A DNA stretch of 64,000 nt from a virus (taxonomy: Duplodnaviria; Heunggongvirae; Uroviricota; Caudoviricetes), in IMG/VR virus record IMGVR_UViG_3300046522_000173, positions 20,274-84,273 of that record. One strand, written 5' to 3'. The notes beneath the pieces were generated by a model. It did not search any database and was not told the origin of the DNA. It saw only the letters and a program-made list of their open reading frames with translations. The position numbers and the translations under genes are program-made. Below are positions 7,783-58,309 of this stretch, piece by piece. Each line of letters begins with the position of its first letter. Within the stretch, counting starts at the first letter, position 1.

Positions 7783-7811
7783 ATTATAGCATTGAAGGGG
7801 AATGTTGTCAA
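7783..7811 (-). promoter_or_regulatory. sigma70-type promoter (cgtaagaa-TTGACA-N17-TATAAT), internal to the late operon
   Basis: Perfect -35 and -10 hexamers with a 17-nt spacer on the minus strand, preceded by the recurrent CGTAAGAA element. Confidence 0.5.
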
Positions 7812-19424: not shown

Positions 19425-19523
19425 ACCGCCAAGCAAAATAACATCCGTAGTTTTATCTGTAAGGATAAGGCGTTGTTTCTCGCTTGCTGGCCCGTAGACC
19501 TTTTTTTGTTTCTTATCTGTCAT
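19425..19523 (-). CDS. terL: terminase large subunit, exon 1 (34-codon ORF MTDKKQKKVYGPASEKQRLILTDKTTDVILLGGG ending in TGA)
   Basis: ATGA-coupled to the upstream T5orf172 gene stop. Ends as the P-loop glycines begin; splicing to exon 2 gives LLGGAGGGKSAT. Confidence 0.55.
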
Positions 19524-20770
19524 AACTCCCCTATTAAACAGTCGAGCATCTCAATAAGGTTGTAACTCGACAGGTCAACGAAGCACTCCGTGTATCCATC
19601 GAATTTAATATCAGGGTTTCTGTACTCAGCCCTCAACATCCTCAGAAATGCACTCTCGACATAAGCACACTGCGTGCCATGCATCTTGTACTCTTTCGCC
19701 ACAACAAACTTATTGTCAGTTGTTCTGTTGATTTCCTTGGCGCGGTGTGTAGCACTTTTGTTGGTAATTCCGATTTTTGTGACGCCAGATGCCTTGAGCA
19801 CGTATAACGTCCCACCTTTACTGGTATTAAACCCTGCCTTGTTGCACAATGAACAACCCTGTCCCGTAAGGTGCTTCTCGGGTGTCTGCTTAAAACTTTT
19901 CCCGCAAACTCCACACGAGATTGAAATCTTAGTGTTTCGGTTCTTGTAATCGCTGAGCGTGTAAACATACCTTTCACCATGAATCACCTTGGCTTGGTCT
20001 ACAAACAGAGAAGCATCTAGTGTCCTTGCTCTGGCTCCTGCATCAATGGCGCATTTCCTACAACCAGACGGCGCGGCGCCATGTGCAGAGTTTACATGGT
20101 TGTCGAACGAAATTTCAAACACTCCGTGGTCGTAACACCGAACCTTTACCTTATTCTTAACACCCTTGAACTCCACAAGGCTGTAGTCGTAGCGGGTTCC
20201 GTGAACAGCTTTCATTGCAGCTACTGCCTCTTCTTGTGTGTAGCTGCAACTCCCCTTTAGAAATCTACCACTCTTAAGTGCCGCAATCCCAACATTTTTA
20301 ACAGTGCCGTCTTCAAACTCAACATCAAAACGTGAGCCAAGGTGTACTGCCTTTACTGTGGCTGCAAACCCCTCGTTGTTCTTGTAAGCTGTTCCAATTT
20401 CCACTCGTTCACACTCATCCCTGTCTGATGCTGTACCGACCAGAAGTTGCGAACTGTTTGTCCACTTTTGCTTGCCGCTGGCAGCAAACTGCACTAGAAT
20501 TCTCTTGGCGTGCACGTACTCCACAACTTTACAAATCCCTGAGTGGCTGGTTTGGAACTCTTGGCCGACTTGTATCCCATACAGCCGAATAGAGTCATCT
20601 TTAAGTATGCCACTCTTAACTTGTGAGGAATTCGTCCTCTTAACACTGGCTGTGTCTAAGAACCTTACAACGATGTTTGTACTATTGGTGTACTCAAGGA
20701 TTTCGATGTTGCCGTAATTTTGTGTTGGGAGTATATCTCCGACTCGAATTGATGGAGCGTTGATGCCCAT
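19520..20770 (-). CDS. T5orf172 (GIY-YIG superfamily-like) putative free-standing homing endonuclease, paralog of 5276..6250
   Basis: N-terminal Zn-ribbon repeats (HGTRYDYSLVEF..C..HGVFEISF..H..GAAPSGCRKC) and a C-terminal LYVLKASGVTKIGIT..R..E..FDGYTECF block, immediately upstream of terL exon 1. Confidence 0.6.
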   Translation of the reverse strand: MGINAPSIRVGDILPTQNYGNIEILEYTNSTNIVVRFLDTASVKRTNSSQVKSGILKDDSIRLYGIQVGQEFQTSHSGICKVVEYVHAKRILVQFAASGKQKWTNSSQLLVGTASDRDECERVEIGTAYKNNEGFAATVKAVHLGSRFDVEFEDGTVKNVGIAALKSGRFLKGSCSYTQEEAVAAMKAVHGTRYDYSLVEFKGVKNKVKVRCYDHGVFEISFDNHVNSAHGAAPSGCRKCAIDAGARARTLDASLFVDQAKVIHGERYVYTLSDYKNRNTKISISCGVCGKSFKQTPEKHLTGQGCSLCNKAGFNTSKGGTLYVLKASGVTKIGITNKSATHRAKEINRTTDNKFVVAKEYKMHGTQCAYVESAFLRMLRAEYRNPDIKFDGYTECFVDLSSYNLIEMLDCLIGEL

Positions 20771-29337: not shown

Positions 29338-29366
29338 TTGACAAGATAGCTCTGCAATGCTATAAT
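29338..29366 (+). promoter_or_regulatory. consensus sigma70 promoter gcgtaagag-TTGACA-N17-TATAAT
   Basis: Perfect hexamers 30 nt upstream of the HTH gene. Confidence 0.6.
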
Positions 29367-45603: not shown

Positions 45604-45828
45604 ATGTCGCGTTCGTTCGACTATCGTAAAGCCACGCTTGAAGAAGCTGCACACCATCTTAATACTGTCCAGCTTCAAGCGTACTCTAAACTCGTCTCAT
45701 ATTACCAGAAAAAGGAGGACACTGCAATGCTAGCAAAGCTGGAGCAAGCGAAGCGGTTGTCGAAGATTCTCAAACTCACGCAGGAGTATGACGCACAGTA
45801 CGGGAAGGCCCTGGAGGGTGGGGTCTGA
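45604..45828 (+). CDS. hypothetical protein (74 aa) co-transcribed with the HNH endonuclease
   Basis: RBS ACAGGAG; ATGA-coupled to the HNH gene. Confidence 0.5.
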   Translation: MSRSFDYRKATLEEAAHHLNTVQLQAYSKLVSYYQKKEDTAMLAKLEQAKRLSKILKLTQEYDAQYGKALEGGV

Positions 45829-46940
45829 TGGATTACGCAAGGATTTACAATGAGTTGATTGAACACAGGAAGATGATGCCGAAGGTGGAGGACGAGGTTT
45901 ACGAGGAACATCATATTATTCCAAAGTCCCGAGGCGGCACTAACGACCCAGAGAACCTAATCAACTTGACCCTAGCCGACCACTTCGTTGCACATCTCCT
46001 GCTTGCACATATTTACGGAGGTAGTTTGTGGTACGCGGCCCAACTTATGGGTGCTACCAGGGAGATAGAAGGGGTTCGTAATAGGCGAACGTATGCGATC
46101 GCGCGCAGGAAGTTGCGGGAGACAATGGGTAAGCATGTTATGGACCATACGGTTTATGAGTTTAAAGACATCAAAACTGGAGAGATAATCAAGGCCACTC
46201 AACTTCAATTGCAACAAGAGCAAGGTCTTCGCCCTTCCAGCACCAGTGCACTCGTGACAGGAGCAAGCAAACATGCACAAGGGTTTTGCTTGGCTTCGAC
46301 GGATGTTGAGGTGAAATTGCTTGACCCTGTTAAGTACGCGTTCCGCCATATCGAAACAGGGACAGTGTATCACATGACAAGGAAGGAGTTCACCGACACC
46401 TTCAACTTGGATCGATCTGTAGCACACAAGATTGTAGAAGGCCGGCAGAAACACAGTTCTGGATTTTGTCTAGATTGCGTTACCGACTTCGGAGGTGTCA
46501 AAGGGACCGGAGAAAAGCTGGAATTTAAGGATGTCAAGACGGGCGAAGTTCTCGTCAAATCCTGCAGGGAAATGGTGGAACTATACGGCGGTTGTCAAAC
46601 GGAATGGAGGGCCGCTGCAAAAGGTTTTGGGGTTGTCCGCCATGGGTTTTGCTCCGCGTCCACACCTCTAGATCATCCAGCGATCATCAACCCTCGAAAC
46701 AGCCAATACATCTTGAGAAACACGGTTAGTGGTGAATTAGTAAGCGGGACAATGCAAGAGTTAGCAATCATCTGTGGTGCTCACAAAAGCAACGTAGCAA
46801 AGGTCTTGGTGGGGAGGAATAAAACCTGTAAAGGTTACGAATTTGTAGGGATTGCCCCGCCCGGAGGCGGGGCTGCCTTCATCACAGAACGCCATGCCCC
46901 TTTAAAATCTTCGCGAGGGCCATTGCAAGATCAAGTGTAG
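45828..46940 (+). CDS. HNH homing endonuclease with three C-terminal DNA-binding repeats
   Basis: HNH core (EEHHIIPKSRGGTNDPENLINLTLADHFVAHLL) followed by three approximately 55-aa repeats (YEFKDIKTGE..). Confidence 0.75.
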   Translation: MDYARIYNELIEHRKMMPKVEDEVYEEHHIIPKSRGGTNDPENLINLTLADHFVAHLLLAHIYGGSLWYAAQLMGATREIEGVRNRRTYAIARRKLRETMGKHVMDHTVYEFKDIKTGEIIKATQLQLQQEQGLRPSSTSALVTGASKHAQGFCLASTDVEVKLLDPVKYAFRHIETGTVYHMTRKEFTDTFNLDRSVAHKIVEGRQKHSSGFCLDCVTDFGGVKGTGEKLEFKDVKTGEVLVKSCREMVELYGGCQTEWRAAAKGFGVVRHGFCSASTPLDHPAIINPRNSQYILRNTVSGELVSGTMQELAIICGAHKSNVAKVLVGRNKTCKGYEFVGIAPPGGGAAFITERHAPLKSSRGPLQDQV

Positions 46941-50406: not shown

Positions 50407-50816
50407 CCGGAGGGGCAGAAGCCCTTCTACTTGCCTTGCTCATTGCTGCTGGGCCTGTGGAGGGTGCTTCTAATGACACTTGCACGAAAGCCATCACGTA
50501 CCTGGAAGCTCGCGGAGAGGGTGTACGGGGTATTGCGGGAGTCAGACAAGTGATTCGCAATCGCGCCAGGAAGAGTGGTGAAACTACTTGCAAGGTTGTT
50601 AAGCGCAGAGGCCAGTTCAGCAGTTACAGGCACGGCATGAATCTTACGAAGGTAAAAACTGACAAGATGTTCTTGACGGCGTGGAAGAAGTCTGTCAAGA
50701 TACAACCACTGACTGGCGAATACACTCACTTCTACCGCAAGGGTAGTACGCCGAAGTGGGCTAGGGAGCTTGAGTGTGACAGGGTTATTAAGAATCATGT
50801 GTTTTGTAAGGCTTAA
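50403..50816 (+). CDS. SleB-like cell wall hydrolase (endolysin candidate) with N-terminal hydrophobic signal/anchor
   Basis: Hydrolase_2/SleB motifs (TKAITYLEARGEGVRGIAGVRQVIRNRA, RGQFSSY); N-terminal LLLALLIAAGPVEGA. Confidence 0.6.
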   Translation: MTGGAEALLLALLIAAGPVEGASNDTCTKAITYLEARGEGVRGIAGVRQVIRNRARKSGETTCKVVKRRGQFSSYRHGMNLTKVKTDKMFLTAWKKSVKIQPLTGEYTHFYRKGSTPKWARELECDRVIKNHVFCKA

Positions 50817-52095: not shown

Positions 52096-52337
52096 CTAGC
52101 GACGAACGTAATTTCATCATCGAGTTGGAAGCGCTCTCCCGCAAGTACAAATTGCAGATTGCTGGTTGTGGCTGCTGTGGTAGCCCCAGGGTGGAGAAGA
52201 TCGCTGAGGTTGATCTTGAACCAGAGGCAGGATACGTCCTCGTAAATCATCTTGAATGGGCTAGCTCAGACCACGTTTACTGGGACTGCGAAGACAGTAT
52301 GTACAAGAATATTGTGATTGGTAAGGAAAAAGGATGA
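52092..52337 (+). CDS. hypothetical protein (CGCCGS motif)
   Basis: ORF track entry. Confidence 0.45.
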   Translation: MTSDERNFIIELEALSRKYKLQIAGCGCCGSPRVEKIAEVDLEPEAGYVLVNHLEWASSDHVYWDCEDSMYKNIVIGKEKG

Positions 52338-52498
52338 CTAGATTCCTTATCGGCCTACTCGCATGTACTGTCATCGGAGCTGTGCTAGTCTCACTTGGTG
52401 TGCCTGTGTTTAGTTGGCAATATGTGCTGGTCATGGTGATGCTGATTGTTATCGCGCAGAATGAAATTTATTGGGAGAGGAAGAAGCGTAATGGTTGA
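52334..52498 (+). CDS. small membrane protein (54 aa)
   Basis: Two hydrophobic segments plus a basic tail; ATGA coupling. Confidence 0.3.
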   Translation: MTRFLIGLLACTVIGAVLVSLGVPVFSWQYVLVMVMLIVIAQNEIYWERKKRNG

Positions 52499-53498
52499 GG
52501 TGAAGGGTAAGGCTAACATTGTTGCACGCATTCTTGCAGACAGCATCAGTGAGCAAGGCCATCGGCTGACGACATGGGAAGTGGAATATCCACGTATCAT
52601 CCATAGCGAGCTGATGACACACCGAATGTTCTCACGTAACGCTGCCAGTAGCCGTGCTATTCCGTTTGCTAAGATGGTTGAGCAGCTTACGGGGCGTCCT
52701 GTACGGTTTGGGGCAAATCAGGCCGGGATGCAGGACGCGGGCGAGGATTTTAATGCAAGTGTAGAAGTGCCAGAGTATGAGGATATGTCATGGGAAGCTT
52801 GCGCCCAGGCATTACCCGAACAAGCATGGGAAGGGGCTAAGTACAGTGCTATGACATTTGCTAGTGCGTTTGCCGAAGCAGGGTACCACAAACAGATTAC
52901 AGGTCGCTTGACGGAACCGTTCCAGATGATGAAGACGATTATCTCTGCTACGGAGACATCGAATTTCTTCTGGTTGCGGGATGACGAAGCAGCTGATCCG
53001 ACAATCGCGGAGTTGGCACGTTGCATGAAGCAGTCTTACGACGAAAGTGCGCCAAGAACTTTGTTCAGTGGTGAATATCATCTGCCGTACATCGCTTCCA
53101 AGTGGAATGGTATTGTCTGCGAACGCACATACTACCTGGACGAAGAGTGCACTCAAGAGATTGCTCTAGAAGACGCTATCAAAGTTTCTTGCGCTCGTTG
53201 CGCCGCAGTTTCCTACCGAAACAATGGGTATGGGCTGGAGAAATCACTAGAGGTTTATGAGCGGTTACTTGGCAGCGATAAGAAGCATGCCAGCGCATTC
53301 GAGCACGTTGCTACACCCATGGGGAACCCTCGCGGCGTTAGTGAGTGCAGAGGCTCATGCTACGGTTTCGACGTTGATGCAGAATGGGGAGCTGGTGTCT
53401 CGCACATGGATCGAGAAGGCAACCTCTGGTCGGGCAACTTCAAAGGCTGGGTTCAGTATCGCAAGACTATTGACGGTGAGAACTACACAGATTCGTAG
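52491..53498 (+). CDS. thyX: flavin-dependent thymidylate synthase ThyX-like
   Basis: ThyX-type motif HRMFSRNAASSR (xHR-X7-S-X-R); RBS GGGAGAGGAAGAAG; start placed at the internal ATG of ORF 52446..53498. Confidence 0.55.
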   Translation: MVEVKGKANIVARILADSISEQGHRLTTWEVEYPRIIHSELMTHRMFSRNAASSRAIPFAKMVEQLTGRPVRFGANQAGMQDAGEDFNASVEVPEYEDMSWEACAQALPEQAWEGAKYSAMTFASAFAEAGYHKQITGRLTEPFQMMKTIISATETSNFFWLRDDEAADPTIAELARCMKQSYDESAPRTLFSGEYHLPYIASKWNGIVCERTYYLDEECTQEIALEDAIKVSCARCAAVSYRNNGYGLEKSLEVYERLLGSDKKHASAFEHVATPMGNPRGVSECRGSCYGFDVDAEWGAGVSHMDREGNLWSGNFKGWVQYRKTIDGENYTDS

Positions 53499-53535
53499 CA
53501 ACATTCTATGCACAGTGAATTCTTAGAAATTCTTG

Positions 53536-53564
53536 TTGACAGCGTTCAATTTTCACAATATAAT
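53536..53564 (+). promoter_or_regulatory. consensus sigma70 promoter TTGACA-N17-TATAAT of a moron cassette
   Basis: Perfect hexamers 50 nt upstream of ATG 53617. Confidence 0.6.
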
Positions 53565-53616
53565 TCTTCTTGTGCTCACTACCGAGCACACTAACAAAAC
53601 TAAGAAAGGCAACACA

Positions 53617-54027
53617 ATGAAAAACGCAATCTTCGCCGCAGCTCTGGTTATCACTGCTAACATCGCTATCGCAGCTACTCCTGCTAGTGCCATCCCTCCG
53701 GGCGATGTCTCGGCACAGGCTACGGCTTCGGGTATTCCCCCAGGTGACGTGTCCGCTCATGTAGCTGCTTCGGGTATTCCTCCGATTGATGTCTCTGCGC
53801 ACGCTGAAGCAAATGTACAAGCAAGCGCAATCCCACCAATCGACGTGTCGGCACATGCTGAAGCTGCTCCGATGCAAGTTAGCGCAATTCCCCCTAGCGA
53901 TGTGTCGTCTCCGAAGCCTTTTGTGCCGGAAGCTGGCAGCGAGGTTGCTACGGCGGCTATGGGCTTCGGTCTGCTGGGGCTGATTGGCGGTATGAAGGTG
54001 ATGGGTCGTCGTCGTAAGCAGAAATAA
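53617..54027 (+). CDS. secreted repeat protein with PEP-CTERM-like C-terminal sorting signal
   Basis: Signal peptide (MKNAIFAAALVITANIAIAATPASA); five tandem IPPGDVSAH-type repeats; C-terminus VPEAGSEVATAAMGFGLLGLIGGMKVMGRRRKQK (PE motif, TM helix, Arg/Lys cluster); followed by a hairpin. Confidence 0.55.
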   Translation: MKNAIFAAALVITANIAIAATPASAIPPGDVSAQATASGIPPGDVSAHVAASGIPPIDVSAHAEANVQASAIPPIDVSAHAEAAPMQVSAIPPSDVSSPKPFVPEAGSEVATAAMGFGLLGLIGGMKVMGRRRKQK

Positions 54028-54085
54028 TTAAGTAGTGTAGAGGGAGGGGCGAAAGCTCCTCTATAAATTAAACTAAGGAGAGAAT

Positions 54086-54961
54086 ATGGAATTCAACACC
54101 AAATACGTGAAGTACTCGGCAATCGGTTTTGCTAGCCTGATCGCGGCTCTGTGGGCCAACCCTTTCAACTCTGTGCCTACGGGCTCTCGTGGCGTAGTGA
54201 CTAGCTTTGGTAAGATTGCTGGCATTGAAGACGAAGGCTTGGTGTTACTCCCTCCGTGGAAGAAGCTCACTATCTTCAACATCCGCGCAGAGAAGGCTGA
54301 CATCGAGAACGCTGAAGGCAGCACTAATGACCAACAACCTGTCAAGGTGAGTATGACTGTTCGCTACAGCGTAGCCACCAACAAGGTGAGCGAAGTGTAC
54401 GAGAAGTATTCGCACGACGGTGATCTGTCCAGCTACGTTCAAACTGCAACACAAGAAGTGTTTAAGGCTGTCACTGCACAATACTCTGCACCAGACCTGA
54501 TTGCACAACGCGCTAAGGTGAGCGGGGATATCCGTATTCAACTGTCCAAGAAACTTGAGATGTATGGGGCGCAAGTGATTGCAATTGACATGCGCAGCTT
54601 CTCTTTCAGCCCAAGCTACATGGCTGCTATCAACGAAAAGGTGACGCAAGAGCAGCTTCGCCTGGGTGCTGAGAACAAGCTGAAAACTGTTGAGGCTGAG
54701 CAGAAGCAGAAAGTGGCTATTGCAGAAGCTGAGGCGAACGCACTGAAGGCGTCCTCTGACGGTAAGGCCTACGCTGCGCTTAAAATTGCTACTGCTGAAG
54801 CAGATAGCTTGAAAGTACAATCGCAGGCACTTGCACAGAATCGTGACGTGCTGGAGCTGCGACGTATCGAGGTCGAGCAGACTAAGGCAAGCCGTTGGAA
54901 TGGTGTGCTGCCAACGAGTGTGTATGGCTCTGCCCCGATTCCTTTTCTGAATACTAAGTGA
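54086..54961 (+). CDS. SPFH/band-7 (prohibitin-like) domain protein
   Basis: N-terminal TM then an SPFH core with a long Ala/Glu-rich coiled coil; RBS AAGGAGAGAA. Confidence 0.6.
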   Translation: MEFNTKYVKYSAIGFASLIAALWANPFNSVPTGSRGVVTSFGKIAGIEDEGLVLLPPWKKLTIFNIRAEKADIENAEGSTNDQQPVKVSMTVRYSVATNKVSEVYEKYSHDGDLSSYVQTATQEVFKAVTAQYSAPDLIAQRAKVSGDIRIQLSKKLEMYGAQVIAIDMRSFSFSPSYMAAINEKVTQEQLRLGAENKLKTVEAEQKQKVAIAEAEANALKASSDGKAYAALKIATAEADSLKVQSQALAQNRDVLELRRIEVEQTKASRWNGVLPTSVYGSAPIPFLNTK

Positions 54962-54967
54962 GGGCGT

Positions 54968-55189
54968 ATGTTTGTATTCATCTTTGGAGTATTAGGTATT
55001 TGTTTAGGAGTTTTGGCGTTTATTCGCATTGAGGTAATCGACCGTGCAATTGGCAAGCGCATTGAGGAAGTGTTTGCGTCAGAGCACTGGTACAAATACG
55101 ATATTCAGGTTAGCGGCACCTACGCGGAGTGCATGTGGGATTTGCGCAAGTGGAAGTATAGGGACATCTTTCCAGAGGTGGTGAAATGA
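54968..55189 (+). CDS. small membrane protein (73 aa), possible partner of the SPFH protein
   Basis: N-terminal TM helix; gene adjacency. Confidence 0.4.
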   Translation: MFVFIFGVLGICLGVLAFIRIEVIDRAIGKRIEEVFASEHWYKYDIQVSGTYAECMWDLRKWKYRDIFPEVVK

Positions 55190-57226: not shown

Positions 57227-58309
57227 ATGAAGAGCAAGTATAATGTCAAGGTTGGGGATCGGTTCCAGAATAATGCAGGCGAGTGGTTCACTGTGAAACA
57301 ATACAACAATGTGGAGGATGTTCTTGTAGAGTTTGACAAGAACGGGCACCAGAAACGAACAACGATCTATTCAGTGGTTCGTGGTGCTATCCGCTTGCCG
57401 AATTTTTGTGTCGGAGATGTTTTGGTGGACAGAGACGGTCTGCCTGCGAAAATCGTGAAAGTCCAGGGGATAAATGCCATTACTTTGGAATGGGAGGATG
57501 GTGTGCAGAGGGTGCATCGATCTTCAAATTTGGGGAGCGGGCAGTTCATGCACCCGTTGAAATCTAAGTACGACAACCCAGAGATAAAAGTGGGCCAAAA
57601 GTGGGAAACGAACCAAGGGTGTATAGTAGAAGTTGTTGGTTACGAAACGTCGAAACGCATCACTGTTCAGTTCTGCGACCCTCACAAGTTTACAGTCGTA
57701 ACCACCCAAGCTAACCTGAAGAGTGGCGCGATCCGTAACAGATATCTGCCCACTTTTTGTGGCGTTGGCGTAATTGGTGACGCAGTGTTTGATCCACGCG
57801 GAAGGATGTACAGAAAGTGGTCACAAATGTTGATGAGGGTTTACTACGAGCCAGCAAGGGCTAAATACAAGACCTACGCGGATTGTTCAGTTTGTTCGGA
57901 ATGGCACGTTTTGGGACAATTTAACGACTGGTATATTAGGCAGATTATTGAACCTGGGTGGCAGATCGACAAAGATTTGTTAGTGAAAGGGAACAAAGTT
58001 TATGGGCCTACATATTGTGTGTTCCTTCCGCGCGAGTTGAACTCCTTCTTAACGAAAAGGCAGAATTGTAGAGGGGAGCAACCGATTGGTGTCAGTAGGG
58101 TACAGGAGACCGGCAGGTATCTGGCACAGATGACTAAAGGGGGGAGGTCCCTCCATATCGGCAGTTATAATACGCCGGAAGAGGCATTCCAAGCATATAA
58201 GAAATGCAAAGAGGGGTACGCACGTGAGCTTGCAGCCAAATGGCGCGACAAAATTGACCTACGTGCGTACAACGCTCTTATGAACTACACTGTAGAAATC
58301 ACAGATTAA
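57227..58309 (+). CDS. HNH-AP2 homing endonuclease with three N-terminal tandem repeats
   Basis: C-terminal AP2-like domain (GVSRVQETGRYLAQMTKGGRSLHIGSYNTPEEAFQAYK); N-terminal triple repeat (VGDRFQNNAGEWFTVKQY..); inserted between the helicase and polymerase genes. Confidence 0.6.
   Translation: MKSKYNVKVGDRFQNNAGEWFTVKQYNNVEDVLVEFDKNGHQKRTTIYSVVRGAIRLPNFCVGDVLVDRDGLPAKIVKVQGINAITLEWEDGVQRVHRSSNLGSGQFMHPLKSKYDNPEIKVGQKWETNQGCIVEVVGYETSKRITVQFCDPHKFTVVTTQANLKSGAIRNRYLPTFCGVGVIGDAVFDPRGRMYRKWSQMLMRVYYEPARAKYKTYADCSVCSEWHVLGQFNDWYIRQIIEPGWQIDKDLLVKGNKVYGPTYCVFLPRELNSFLTKRQNCRGEQPIGVSRVQETGRYLAQMTKGGRSLHIGSYNTPEEAFQAYKKCKEGYARELAAKWRDKIDLRAYNALMNYTVEITD

Follow-up and report, generated by a model that had tools for sequence, protein, structure and literature searches.

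Several described systems resemble, in one respect or another, the gene that is the subject of this work. The gene VIII procoat of bacteriophage M13 has a cleaved signal peptide, an acidic outer N-terminal part, a helix of small residues and a Lys-rich inner tail. The moron, superinfection-exclusion and envelope genes of other phages include bor and lom of lambda, the gene for gp15 of HK97, llp of T5 and cor of T1, and the unimolecular spanin (u-spanin) gp11 of phage T1 combines an N-terminal export signal with a C-terminal transmembrane segment. Proteins with C-terminal sorting signals offer another comparison: the PEP motif is near-invariant in the PEP-CTERM domain, according to one published account (PMC9012009), and WGxxGxxG-CTERM may be an orphan signal for sorting whose enzyme is not known (bioRxiv 10.1101/2023.06.07.544157). 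We have analysed a gene for a 136-residue repeat protein located in a 64,000-nucleotide stretch of Caudoviricetes phage DNA (positions 20,274-84,273 of IMG/VR record IMGVR_UViG_3300046522_000173), the whole of which is referred to below as the window. The original prediction described this gene as a moron encoding a substrate of the PEP-CTERM/exosortase system. We find that the protein belongs to a family whose most conserved part is a C-terminal helix with a basic tail, that no curated sorting signal is recognised in it, and that a plain membrane anchor is the more plausible reading of its C-terminus.

The repeat protein and its family

The coding region and the parts of its product are arranged in the window as follows.

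53617-54027 (+): open reading frame (ORF) of the repeat protein, 136 amino acids, with an ATG at 53617 and the stop codon at 54025-54027
53617-53691 (+): signal peptide, amino acids 1-25 (MKNAIFAAALVITANIAIAATPASA), predicted from hydropathy, with cleavage after ASA according to the -3/-1 rule
53692-53943 (+): acidic region rich in Ala, Pro, Ser and Val, amino acids 26-109, with five IPPxDVS[AS] repeats; predicted to be disordered and periplasmic
53944-54024 (+): C-terminal helix and basic tail, amino acids 110-136 (VATAAMGFGLLGLIGGMKVMGRRRKQK), interpreted as a membrane anchor of the stop-transfer type

The layout of the protein is as it had been described from the sequence: signal peptide, five tandem repeats, and a C-terminus composed of a PE motif, a hydrophobic helix and an Arg/Lys cluster. 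In the N-terminal part, a hydrophobic stretch at residues 3-23 overlaps a helix (residues 2-19) in the AlphaFold2 model, and an A-S-A|I cleavage site follows residue 25. The IPPxDVS[AS] repeats are found at residues 26, 40, 54, 72 and 91. Tandem Repeats Finder detected no repeats in the DNA, the repetition being present at the protein level only. The 84-residue middle that contains the repeats carries a net charge of -8, and Ala, Pro and Ser together make up 51% of it. The sequence PKPFVPEAGSE lies between the repeat region and the helix VATAAMGFGLLGLIGGMKVMG, and RRRKQK comes after the helix, so that the window C-terminus, VPEAGSEVATAAMGFGLLGLIGGMKVMGRRRKQK, ends in GLIGGMKVMGRRRKQK, with an Arg-rich cluster closing the chain behind the hydrophobic helix. 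The AlphaFold2 model, which was built from a 33-sequence alignment, contains two helices only, at residues 2-19 and 109-134. Its mean predicted local distance difference test (pLDDT) score is 56.6, and the score falls below 50 across most of residues 29-87. No relative of the repeat protein was found in the PDB.

A single-sequence search of 5.8 billion proteins returned only the window protein itself. The first homologues were reached through loci that carry a gene for an SPFH protein: in contigs L040 and L038 a small ORF occupies the equivalent position, and its product is built in the same way, with a similar tail. A profile search of the 5.8 billion proteins retrieved 41 homologue clusters, all of them metagenomic (JGI, Logan and ENA), to which an exhaustive hidden Markov model (HMM) search of 1.84 billion representatives contributed no more than two distant members, for a total of 43 homologues (seven clusters at 50% identity). 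Many family members are encoded on contigs of 80-98 kb. Nothing relevant was retrieved from 50,697 deposited phage records by tblastn with the window protein and homologue P0024, and the family profile found no member in 185,579 species genomes. Scans with NCBIfam, Pfam and PHROG gave sub-cutoff or insignificant matches only, and none of the three has a model for the family. Judging by these searches, the newly delimited 43-member family is a previously unannotated one that belongs to a single clade of uncultured phages.

Alignment of the members gives a signal-peptide consensus MKKxIxAxxLSLxASAAFA|Q, a middle that contains VSAS, DDVSAP, DVSAP, DCCGVPVSAP and DVSGPP repeats, often together with DAKDGRRPAP, an acidic patch after the middle (EEDSSG, KEDDSDS), and the C-terminus [LFV][AS]MAGLGFGLFGLVG[VL][ST]K[LF]ARRKK, whose helix motif may also be written AMAGLGFGLFGLVG..K..RRKK. 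Mean pairwise identity is 0.56 for the signal peptide, 0.40 for the middle and 0.78 for the helix and tail, which are thus the most conserved part of the protein. The invariant positions are S32, A33, A113, G116, F117, G118, L119, L122, G124, K127, R131 and R132. For the helix codons, synonymous differences (pS) amount to 0.43 and nonsynonymous ones (pN) to 0.12. The resulting ratio of 0.28 indicates that the protein sequence itself is under purifying selection. In about 40% of the aligned members, 4-10 extra residues of variable sequence follow RRKK, which fits a plain cytoplasmic tail. The window protein is a divergent member that has IPPxDVSAH repeats and no Cys; metal binding by paired Cys is therefore not essential. 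At the DNA level, the twelve bases GCTCGTCGGAAG, which are the codons for A-R-R-K, are shared unchanged by 15 of 17 loci (L052-L077), and the equivalent bases of the window, 54004-54015, differ. The helix codons beside these twelve bases show many synonymous differences (the pS of 0.43 given above).

Single-pass membrane proteins of this kind are interpreted by established rules on charge distribution (positive-inside), on cleavage by signal peptidase I (-3/-1) and on stop-transfer anchoring. Applying these rules, we favour with moderate confidence a single-pass type I membrane protein that is exported by Sec, held by its C-terminal anchor and exposes the acidic repeats to the periplasm. The precursor would pass through Sec and be cut by signal peptidase I after ASA (AFA in the relatives). 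The C-terminal helix would then act as a stop-transfer sequence in the inner membrane, leaving K127 and RRRKQK in the cytoplasm and giving an N-out, C-in orientation. About 85 acidic, disordered residues with DVSA-type repeats would remain in the periplasm and, if extended, could span much of it. Small residues form an invariant face on the helix, which suggests that it packs specifically against a helix partner; this near-invariant face, GxG..G..G, would most likely pack on another helix, belonging either to a second copy of the protein or to a host or phage membrane protein. The Ser-Ala-Pro repeats may possibly be O-glycosylated by a PglL-type enzyme.

The protein would act at the envelope of the infected cell. 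This placement is proposed because lipoproteins, secreted proteins and membrane proteins occupy the slot downstream of the gene in related phages. Superinfection exclusion and envelope remodelling are the leading guesses for its role, and in any specific function we have far less confidence than in the topology and the anchor. In this uncultured group, genes for superinfection exclusion or envelope remodelling are well worth seeking at the fixed spot next to the thymidylate synthase gene and in the hot spot that follows it.

Sorting-signal tests and other readings

The C-terminus was scored with HMMs of known C-terminal sorting signals, the cutoffs being 16 bits for TIGR02595 (PEP-CTERM), 15.5 for TIGR03501 (GlyGly-CTERM), 24 for NF038039 and 35 for NF041742 (the latter two being WGxxGxxG models). 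Tails used as positive controls were synthetic, consensus-like sequences and not natural proteins. The NCBIfam scan of the whole window protein at E<=10 gave no PEP-CTERM or GlyGly-CTERM match. It gave only two matches below cutoff, to LAVTG-sortase (15.5 bits, cutoff 27) and MYXO-CTERM (13.6 bits, cutoff 20), and the Pfam scan gave solely LPXTG (8.9 bits, cutoff 20). When the tails of the window protein and of its L040 and L038 homologues were scanned in isolation, neither TIGR02595 nor any other PEP-CTERM model reported them at E<=10. All matches of the isolated tails were below cutoff: LAVTG at 20.3 bits (cutoff 27), PVV-CTERM at 16.1-17.7 (cutoff 27), MYXO-CTERM at 13.5-16 (cutoff 20) and LPXTG at 14.6 (cutoff 15.9). 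A synthetic canonical PEP-CTERM tail, scanned in the same way, scored 36 bits with TIGR02595 and matched 20 further models, mostly of PEP-CTERM families. Editing the window tail to VPEP still produced no match to TIGR02595.

Conservation within the family points the same way. At E<=0.1 neither PEP-CTERM nor GlyGly-CTERM models matched any of the 33 aligned members. PEP is absent from the 18 residues ahead of the helix in all 43 members, and PE is found there in one only, the window protein itself (VPEA). Homologues L040 and L038 carry KEDDSDS or QDEGSDS where the window protein has VPEAGSE. Since PE occurs in 1 and PEP in none of the 43, the window VPEA is best taken as a lineage-specific accident in an acidic stretch. 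GlyGly-CTERM fares no better: TIGR03501 matched neither the window tail nor the family tails and gave 28.9 bits with its synthetic control, and the pre-helix sequence is SDSLAMAG or SEVATAAMG, with no GG(S). Scoring with TIGR02595 and the GlyGly-CTERM HMM had been named beforehand as the check whose negative outcome would speak against the exosortase claim; the outcome was negative, and the claim is refuted at the sequence level. As far as these models and alignments can tell, the tail resembles C-terminal sorting signals in outline and fails every membership test run. A PE motif, a helix and an RRR cluster recognised by eye are thus insufficient for assignment to PEP-CTERM, and it is family conservation and controlled HMM scoring that settle the matter.

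The WGxxGxxG models gave a less uniform picture. NF038039 produced zero matches among the window protein and the members scanned. NF041742 matched 23 of 33 members at E<=0.1 (best E = 1e-5), the full-length scores being 8-21.4 bits in the members inspected against the cutoff of 35, and the matches also span the signal peptide. The family consensus tail taken alone matched neither NF041742 nor NF038039, and a synthetic WGxxGxxG tail scored 50.6 and 38.9 bits, respectively.

Several points weigh against the type I membrane-anchor topology and the envelope role proposed above. The absence of any relative from the 185,579 species genomes means that no host is assigned. A cleavable signal peptide combined with a C-terminal anchor is the very architecture that defines known C-terminal sorting signals, and the isolated tail has the sub-cutoff scores listed above with LAVTG, PVV-CTERM, MYXO-CTERM and LPXTG. 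Given this architecture and these matches, the tail may be processed by an unrecognised enzyme. A helix more conserved than the repeats would also be expected of a recognition signal. Finally, the envelope function is proposed from neighbouring genes and by analogy only.

These points lead to the alternative that survives best, namely that the tail is an unrecognised cleavage or sorting signal. Cleavage near ..[LFV]-[AS]-M-A|G-L-G.. by an intramembrane protease of the host (rhomboid/GlpG-like, rhombosortase-like or other) would release the acidic repeat peptide to the periplasm or lead to its transfer elsewhere. No part of the protein is better conserved than the helix, which is also rich in helix-destabilising Gly, and the presence of a signal peptide together with a C-terminal anchor is a hallmark of sorting signals. 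Rhomboids recognise a pattern with a large hydrophobic residue at P4, a small one at P1 and a hydrophobic one at P2', and the outer end of the helix fits this pattern loosely, though a pattern so loose may be matched by chance. The weak NF041742 matches in 23 of 33 members also speak for such a signal, the related WGxxGxxG-CTERM being a possible orphan signal; against this, the tail alone is missed by both WGxxGxxG models, which recognise the synthetic control, and the full-length matches stay at or below 21.4 bits in the inspected members and extend over the signal peptide. True sorting signals are normally common to several unrelated substrates, and the family tail was found in no other protein family among the 1.84 billion representatives or the 185,579 species genomes. 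The variable extensions past RRKK in many members also argue against a signal at the C-terminus. On balance, we consider protease cleavage with release or transfer of the peptide unlikely. The more specific proposal, that phages carry in the segment ..[LFV][AS]MAGLGFGLFGLVG.SK.ARRKK a new signal for C-terminal processing, cleaved by an intramembrane protease of the host or an as yet unrecognised sorting enzyme, through which an acidic DVSAP-repeat peptide is released or re-targeted in the host envelope, strikes us as rather doubtful too. The extreme conservation of the helix is nevertheless unexplained, and if it reflected a true cleavage signal, the protein would be considerably more interesting: no earlier substrate of a C-terminal sorting system would have come from a phage, and orphan signals such as WGxxGxxG-CTERM might be approached through it.

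A role in lysis, as a u-spanin-like protein or as a regulator of the holin/antiholin type, is improbable. The N-terminal signal and the C-terminal transmembrane segment do recall T1 gp11; a Hydrolase_2 homologue (50469-50810) and an ORF with two transmembrane segments (52334-52498) lie nearby in the window, and Hydrolase_2 genes are located 2.5-3 kb upstream in L056 and L058. However, no lipobox Cys follows the signal peptide (AFA|Q in the family, ASA|I in the window protein), so the protein lacks the outer-membrane lipid anchor that a u-spanin requires. The PHROG spanin match is insignificant (E = 2.9). Holins are, to our knowledge, made without cleavable signal peptides, unlike the protein studied here. 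The gene is also located within a block of nucleotide-metabolism and replication genes and has a host-type promoter.

Less probable again is that the protein serves the neighbouring SPFH protein as a dedicated membrane partner, as in bacterial NfeD-SPFH pairs. The gene is directly 5' of the SPFH gene in the window, L057, L038/L072 and L040/L070, and both products are membrane proteins by prediction. Most members, however, are followed by genes for DUF8296, DUF2076, lipoproteins or a secreted 119-residue protein (p119); the SPFH gene is present in 49 viral contigs, mostly in the absence of the family gene; in L003 it comes directly after thyX; and no match to NfeD or any other Pfam family was obtained. 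The exosortase reading itself, in which a host enzyme of the EpsH/XrtA type cleaves the tail and sends the repeat protein to the surface or the exopolysaccharide layer, can point to a real generic three-part shape (V-P-E five residues ahead of the hydrophobic stretch in the window protein, a Gly/Leu-rich helix and a C-terminal Arg/Lys cluster) and to sub-cutoff matches with other CTERM models, but it is scarcely tenable given models that pass over the window tail even after the VPEP edit, its two homologues and the 33 members, and a motif that the family does not have. A mimic of the TonB box or TolB box was rejected, no matching motif being present.

Transcription unit and genomic setting

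The regulatory elements and neighbours of the gene, and the other features of the window and of related contigs that are considered here, are the following.

53536-53564 (+): sigma-70-type promoter TTGACA-N17-TATAAT, 12/12 consensus match
53571-53590 (+): 5'-proximal stem-loop of 7 bp, TGTGCTC/GAGCACA, -10.6 kcal/mol by RNAfold
53602-53609 (+): ribosome-binding site AAGAAAGG, 7 nucleotides ahead of the ATG, read from the sequence
54043-54062 (+): 3' hairpin of 8 bp with a GAAA tetraloop
7783-7811 (-) and 29338-29366 (+): other perfect promoters
52446-53498 (+): upstream neighbour, long thyX-like thymidylate synthase gene (Pfam Thy1, 26.8 bits, cutoff 24.8)
54086-54961 (+): downstream neighbour, gene for an SPFH/Band 7 membrane protein (Band_7, 100.5 bits)
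54968-55189: conserved 73-75-residue protein with an N-terminal transmembrane segment
54086-55189 in the window, 5775-5999 in L056, 6355-6591 in L061, 5398-5757 in L052 and 5438-6424 in L058: downstream slot

The promoter ahead of the gene is perfect, as had been claimed. Three perfect TTGACA-N17-TATAAT sites are present in the 64-kb window, where 0.03 are expected, and none of 100 shuffled sequences reached three. Four more TTGACA-N17 sites with 11 of 12 matches lie within 44-64 kb. Thus, the motif represents the general host-type promoter class of this phage and is not peculiar to the repeat-protein gene. The promoters at 7783-7811 (-) and 29338-29366 (+) have in common the extended sequence CGTAAGA(A/G)TTGACAA...CAATGCTATAAT and look like a distinct subclass in the window phage. 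In the upstream regions of the homologues a TTGAC(A/G/T) -35 box occupies the equivalent place, and the -10 box is variable.

The 5' stem-loop begins about 7 nucleotides past the -10 box, which places it where the transcript is predicted to start or close to that point. When sequences were folded separately, a hairpin of 5-8 bp was found at the equivalent 5' place in 14 other loci, with stems of different sequence. Alignment of the 5' untranslated regions with MAFFT and RNAalifold gave no consensus structure, the 3' arms being misaligned. The hairpin may contribute to mRNA stability. The (A)AAGG core of the ribosome-binding site and its spacing are kept across the homologues as invariant alignment columns. 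The public gene call, P0001, is 164 amino acids long and starts from a TTG at 53533 inside the -35 box. It is probably too long, and the conserved MK(K/N) preceded by the ribosome-binding site, at 53617, is more likely to be the true start. A similar N-terminal over-extension is seen in homologues P0004, P0015, P0016, P0025, P0029, P0030 and P0040.

The terminal hairpin reported at the end of the unit is present as an 8-bp stem. As a terminator it is less certain, since in the window it has no U-tract and the terminator scan of the window made no call there. A 71-nucleotide stretch that includes the hairpin folds with -15.2 kcal/mol (z = -2.77). The hairpin is kept in 16 loci, with compensatory changes at four of its eight pairs and loops of the GAAA or UUCG type, and in most relatives a T-rich tail follows it. 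As can be seen, every examined locus has the same order of elements: TTGAC as the -35 box, a 5-8 bp hairpin immediately past the -10 box, (A)AAGG, the ORF and the 3' hairpin. A regulatory cassette this well conserved is unusual. The host-type promoter, the hairpin at the 5' terminus and the strong ribosome-binding site together point to abundant expression from early infection. The gene would be expressed as an autonomous unit read by the host RNA polymerase, probably at a high level.

The Thy1 and Band_7 scores given above bear out the placement of the gene between thyX and the SPFH gene. In related contigs, too, the family gene is directly 3' of a thymidylate synthase gene, either the long thyX-like form (340-361 residues) or canonical Thy1 (215-243 residues). 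Both types are found in the same slot (window 52446-53498, L038 4794-5525, L056 4271-4918 and L058 4203-4922), and an in-place exchange of one type for the other seems to have occurred. In L057 a homing endonuclease gene (938-1456) lies between Thy1 and the family gene. The position of the family gene is constant in about 25 related contigs. The slot downstream is variable and houses genes for SPFH, DUF8296, DUF2076, p119 or small lipoproteins; after it come small ORFs and then the gene for a DnaB-type primase-helicase. With its two lipoprotein families carrying lipoboxes (LTGC|S.. and LTGC|T..), the slot is a hot spot for envelope proteins, and its further occupants are p119, DUF2076 with a signal peptide, SPFH and the 73-75-residue protein.

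An SPFH gene follows the family gene in five distinct contigs only, including the window, L057, L038/L072 and L040/L070, and most family members have no SPFH gene nearby. The 49 viral contigs that carry the SPFH gene (L003-L051; the gene is 58-86% identical in them) include GC-rich ones with integrase-like ORFs, and most of them do not have the family gene. Since its surroundings in these contigs are unrelated, we regard SPFH as a mobile accessory gene here, and it seems to move between very different phages. In L003, which has no family gene, thyX (55% identity) and SPFH (85%) are separated by 82 nucleotides, in which there is nothing but a promoter, TTGACA-N17-TACAAT, and a ribosome-binding site. 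The description of the gene as a classic moron is therefore only partly borne out: promoter, ORF and hairpin do form a unit of its own, and the flanking genes are adjacent in L003, but the position of the gene is fixed across the contigs and its occurrence is not sporadic. On this comparison of loci, the gene, modular and self-contained as a transcription unit, is nevertheless a conserved feature of the clade rather than a sporadic addition.

Among the products encoded in the window are the major head protein, portal and large terminase, together with helicases, DNA polymerase A and a number of homing endonucleases. Of the deposited phages, Pseudomonas phage vB_PsaM_M1 (89 kb, seawater, Ounavirinae) comes closest, with 67% identity in the capsid protein; for the terminase and polymerase, identity to proteins of Pseudomonas and Aeromonas myoviruses is 37-51%. 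The region upstream of the helicase gene of vB_PsaM_M1 contains no block of thyX, family gene and SPFH. G+C content of the window is about 48-49%, and the sole tRNA is that for Thr. The capsid protein found no relative in the 185,579 species genomes. By these similarities, the phages that carry the family, with contigs of about 85-92 kb, appear to be myovirus-like and distantly related to Ounavirinae, which are a virulent group. The Hydrolase_2-type cell-wall hydrolase homologue of the window (50469-50810) is 57% identical to the L058 gene, and it shares a small-gene block with the 54-residue ORF at 52334-52498, whose product has two hydrophobic segments and a basic tail and is holin-like. Homing endonuclease genes (HNH and AP2-type) are located at 19520-20770, 45828-46940 and 57227-58309, one of them between the genes for primase-helicase and polymerase.

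Comparison with known systems

Proteins of the PEP-CTERM type (TIGR02595; VPEP in Pfam) and the family described here both start with a cleavable signal peptide and have a C-terminal helix rich in Gly and Leu, with Arg and Lys residues clustered at the chain end or close to it. Beyond the missing motif and the silent HMMs, the family departs from them in having a conserved Lys inside the helix and, in many members, extensions of 4-10 residues. There is also a likeness to the WGxxGxxG proteins of NF041742 and NF038039: these, too, are small and secreted, have a middle of low complexity and carry basic residues after a GxxGxxG helix, and FGLFGLVG of the family stands in the place of WGxxGxxG, with weak full-length matches in 23 of 33 members. 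Unlike them, the family scores only 14-21 bits in the members inspected against the cutoff of 35, its tail alone is unmatched, the Trp is replaced by an invariant Phe, and its members come from phage contigs only.

Like the T1 gp11 u-spanin, the family combines an export signal with a C-terminal transmembrane segment in a product of about 100-140 residues; unlike it, the family has no lipobox or lipid anchor, no recognisable lysis cassette and no significant PHROG spanin match. The resemblance to morons lies in a small predicted envelope protein, a host-type promoter of its own, a downstream hairpin and the absence of the gene from L003. In contrast to morons, which are typically sporadic accessory genes of temperate phages expressed from the prophage, the gene has a fixed position throughout the clade, and no homology to bor, lom, HK97 gp15, llp or cor was detected. 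Since the relatives are phages of the virulent type, lysogenic conversion is probably not the setting.

The M13 procoat has no sequence relationship to the family, whose members belong to tailed phages, have a much longer and repetitive exterior and are not indicated to be part of the virion. In layout, however, the two agree: both are predicted or known to be of type I, with an acidic exterior, a helix of small residues and a basic interior tail. The repeat protein is thus of a familiar kind and of modest importance, most probably a generic phage envelope protein that is anchored in the membrane with type I topology.

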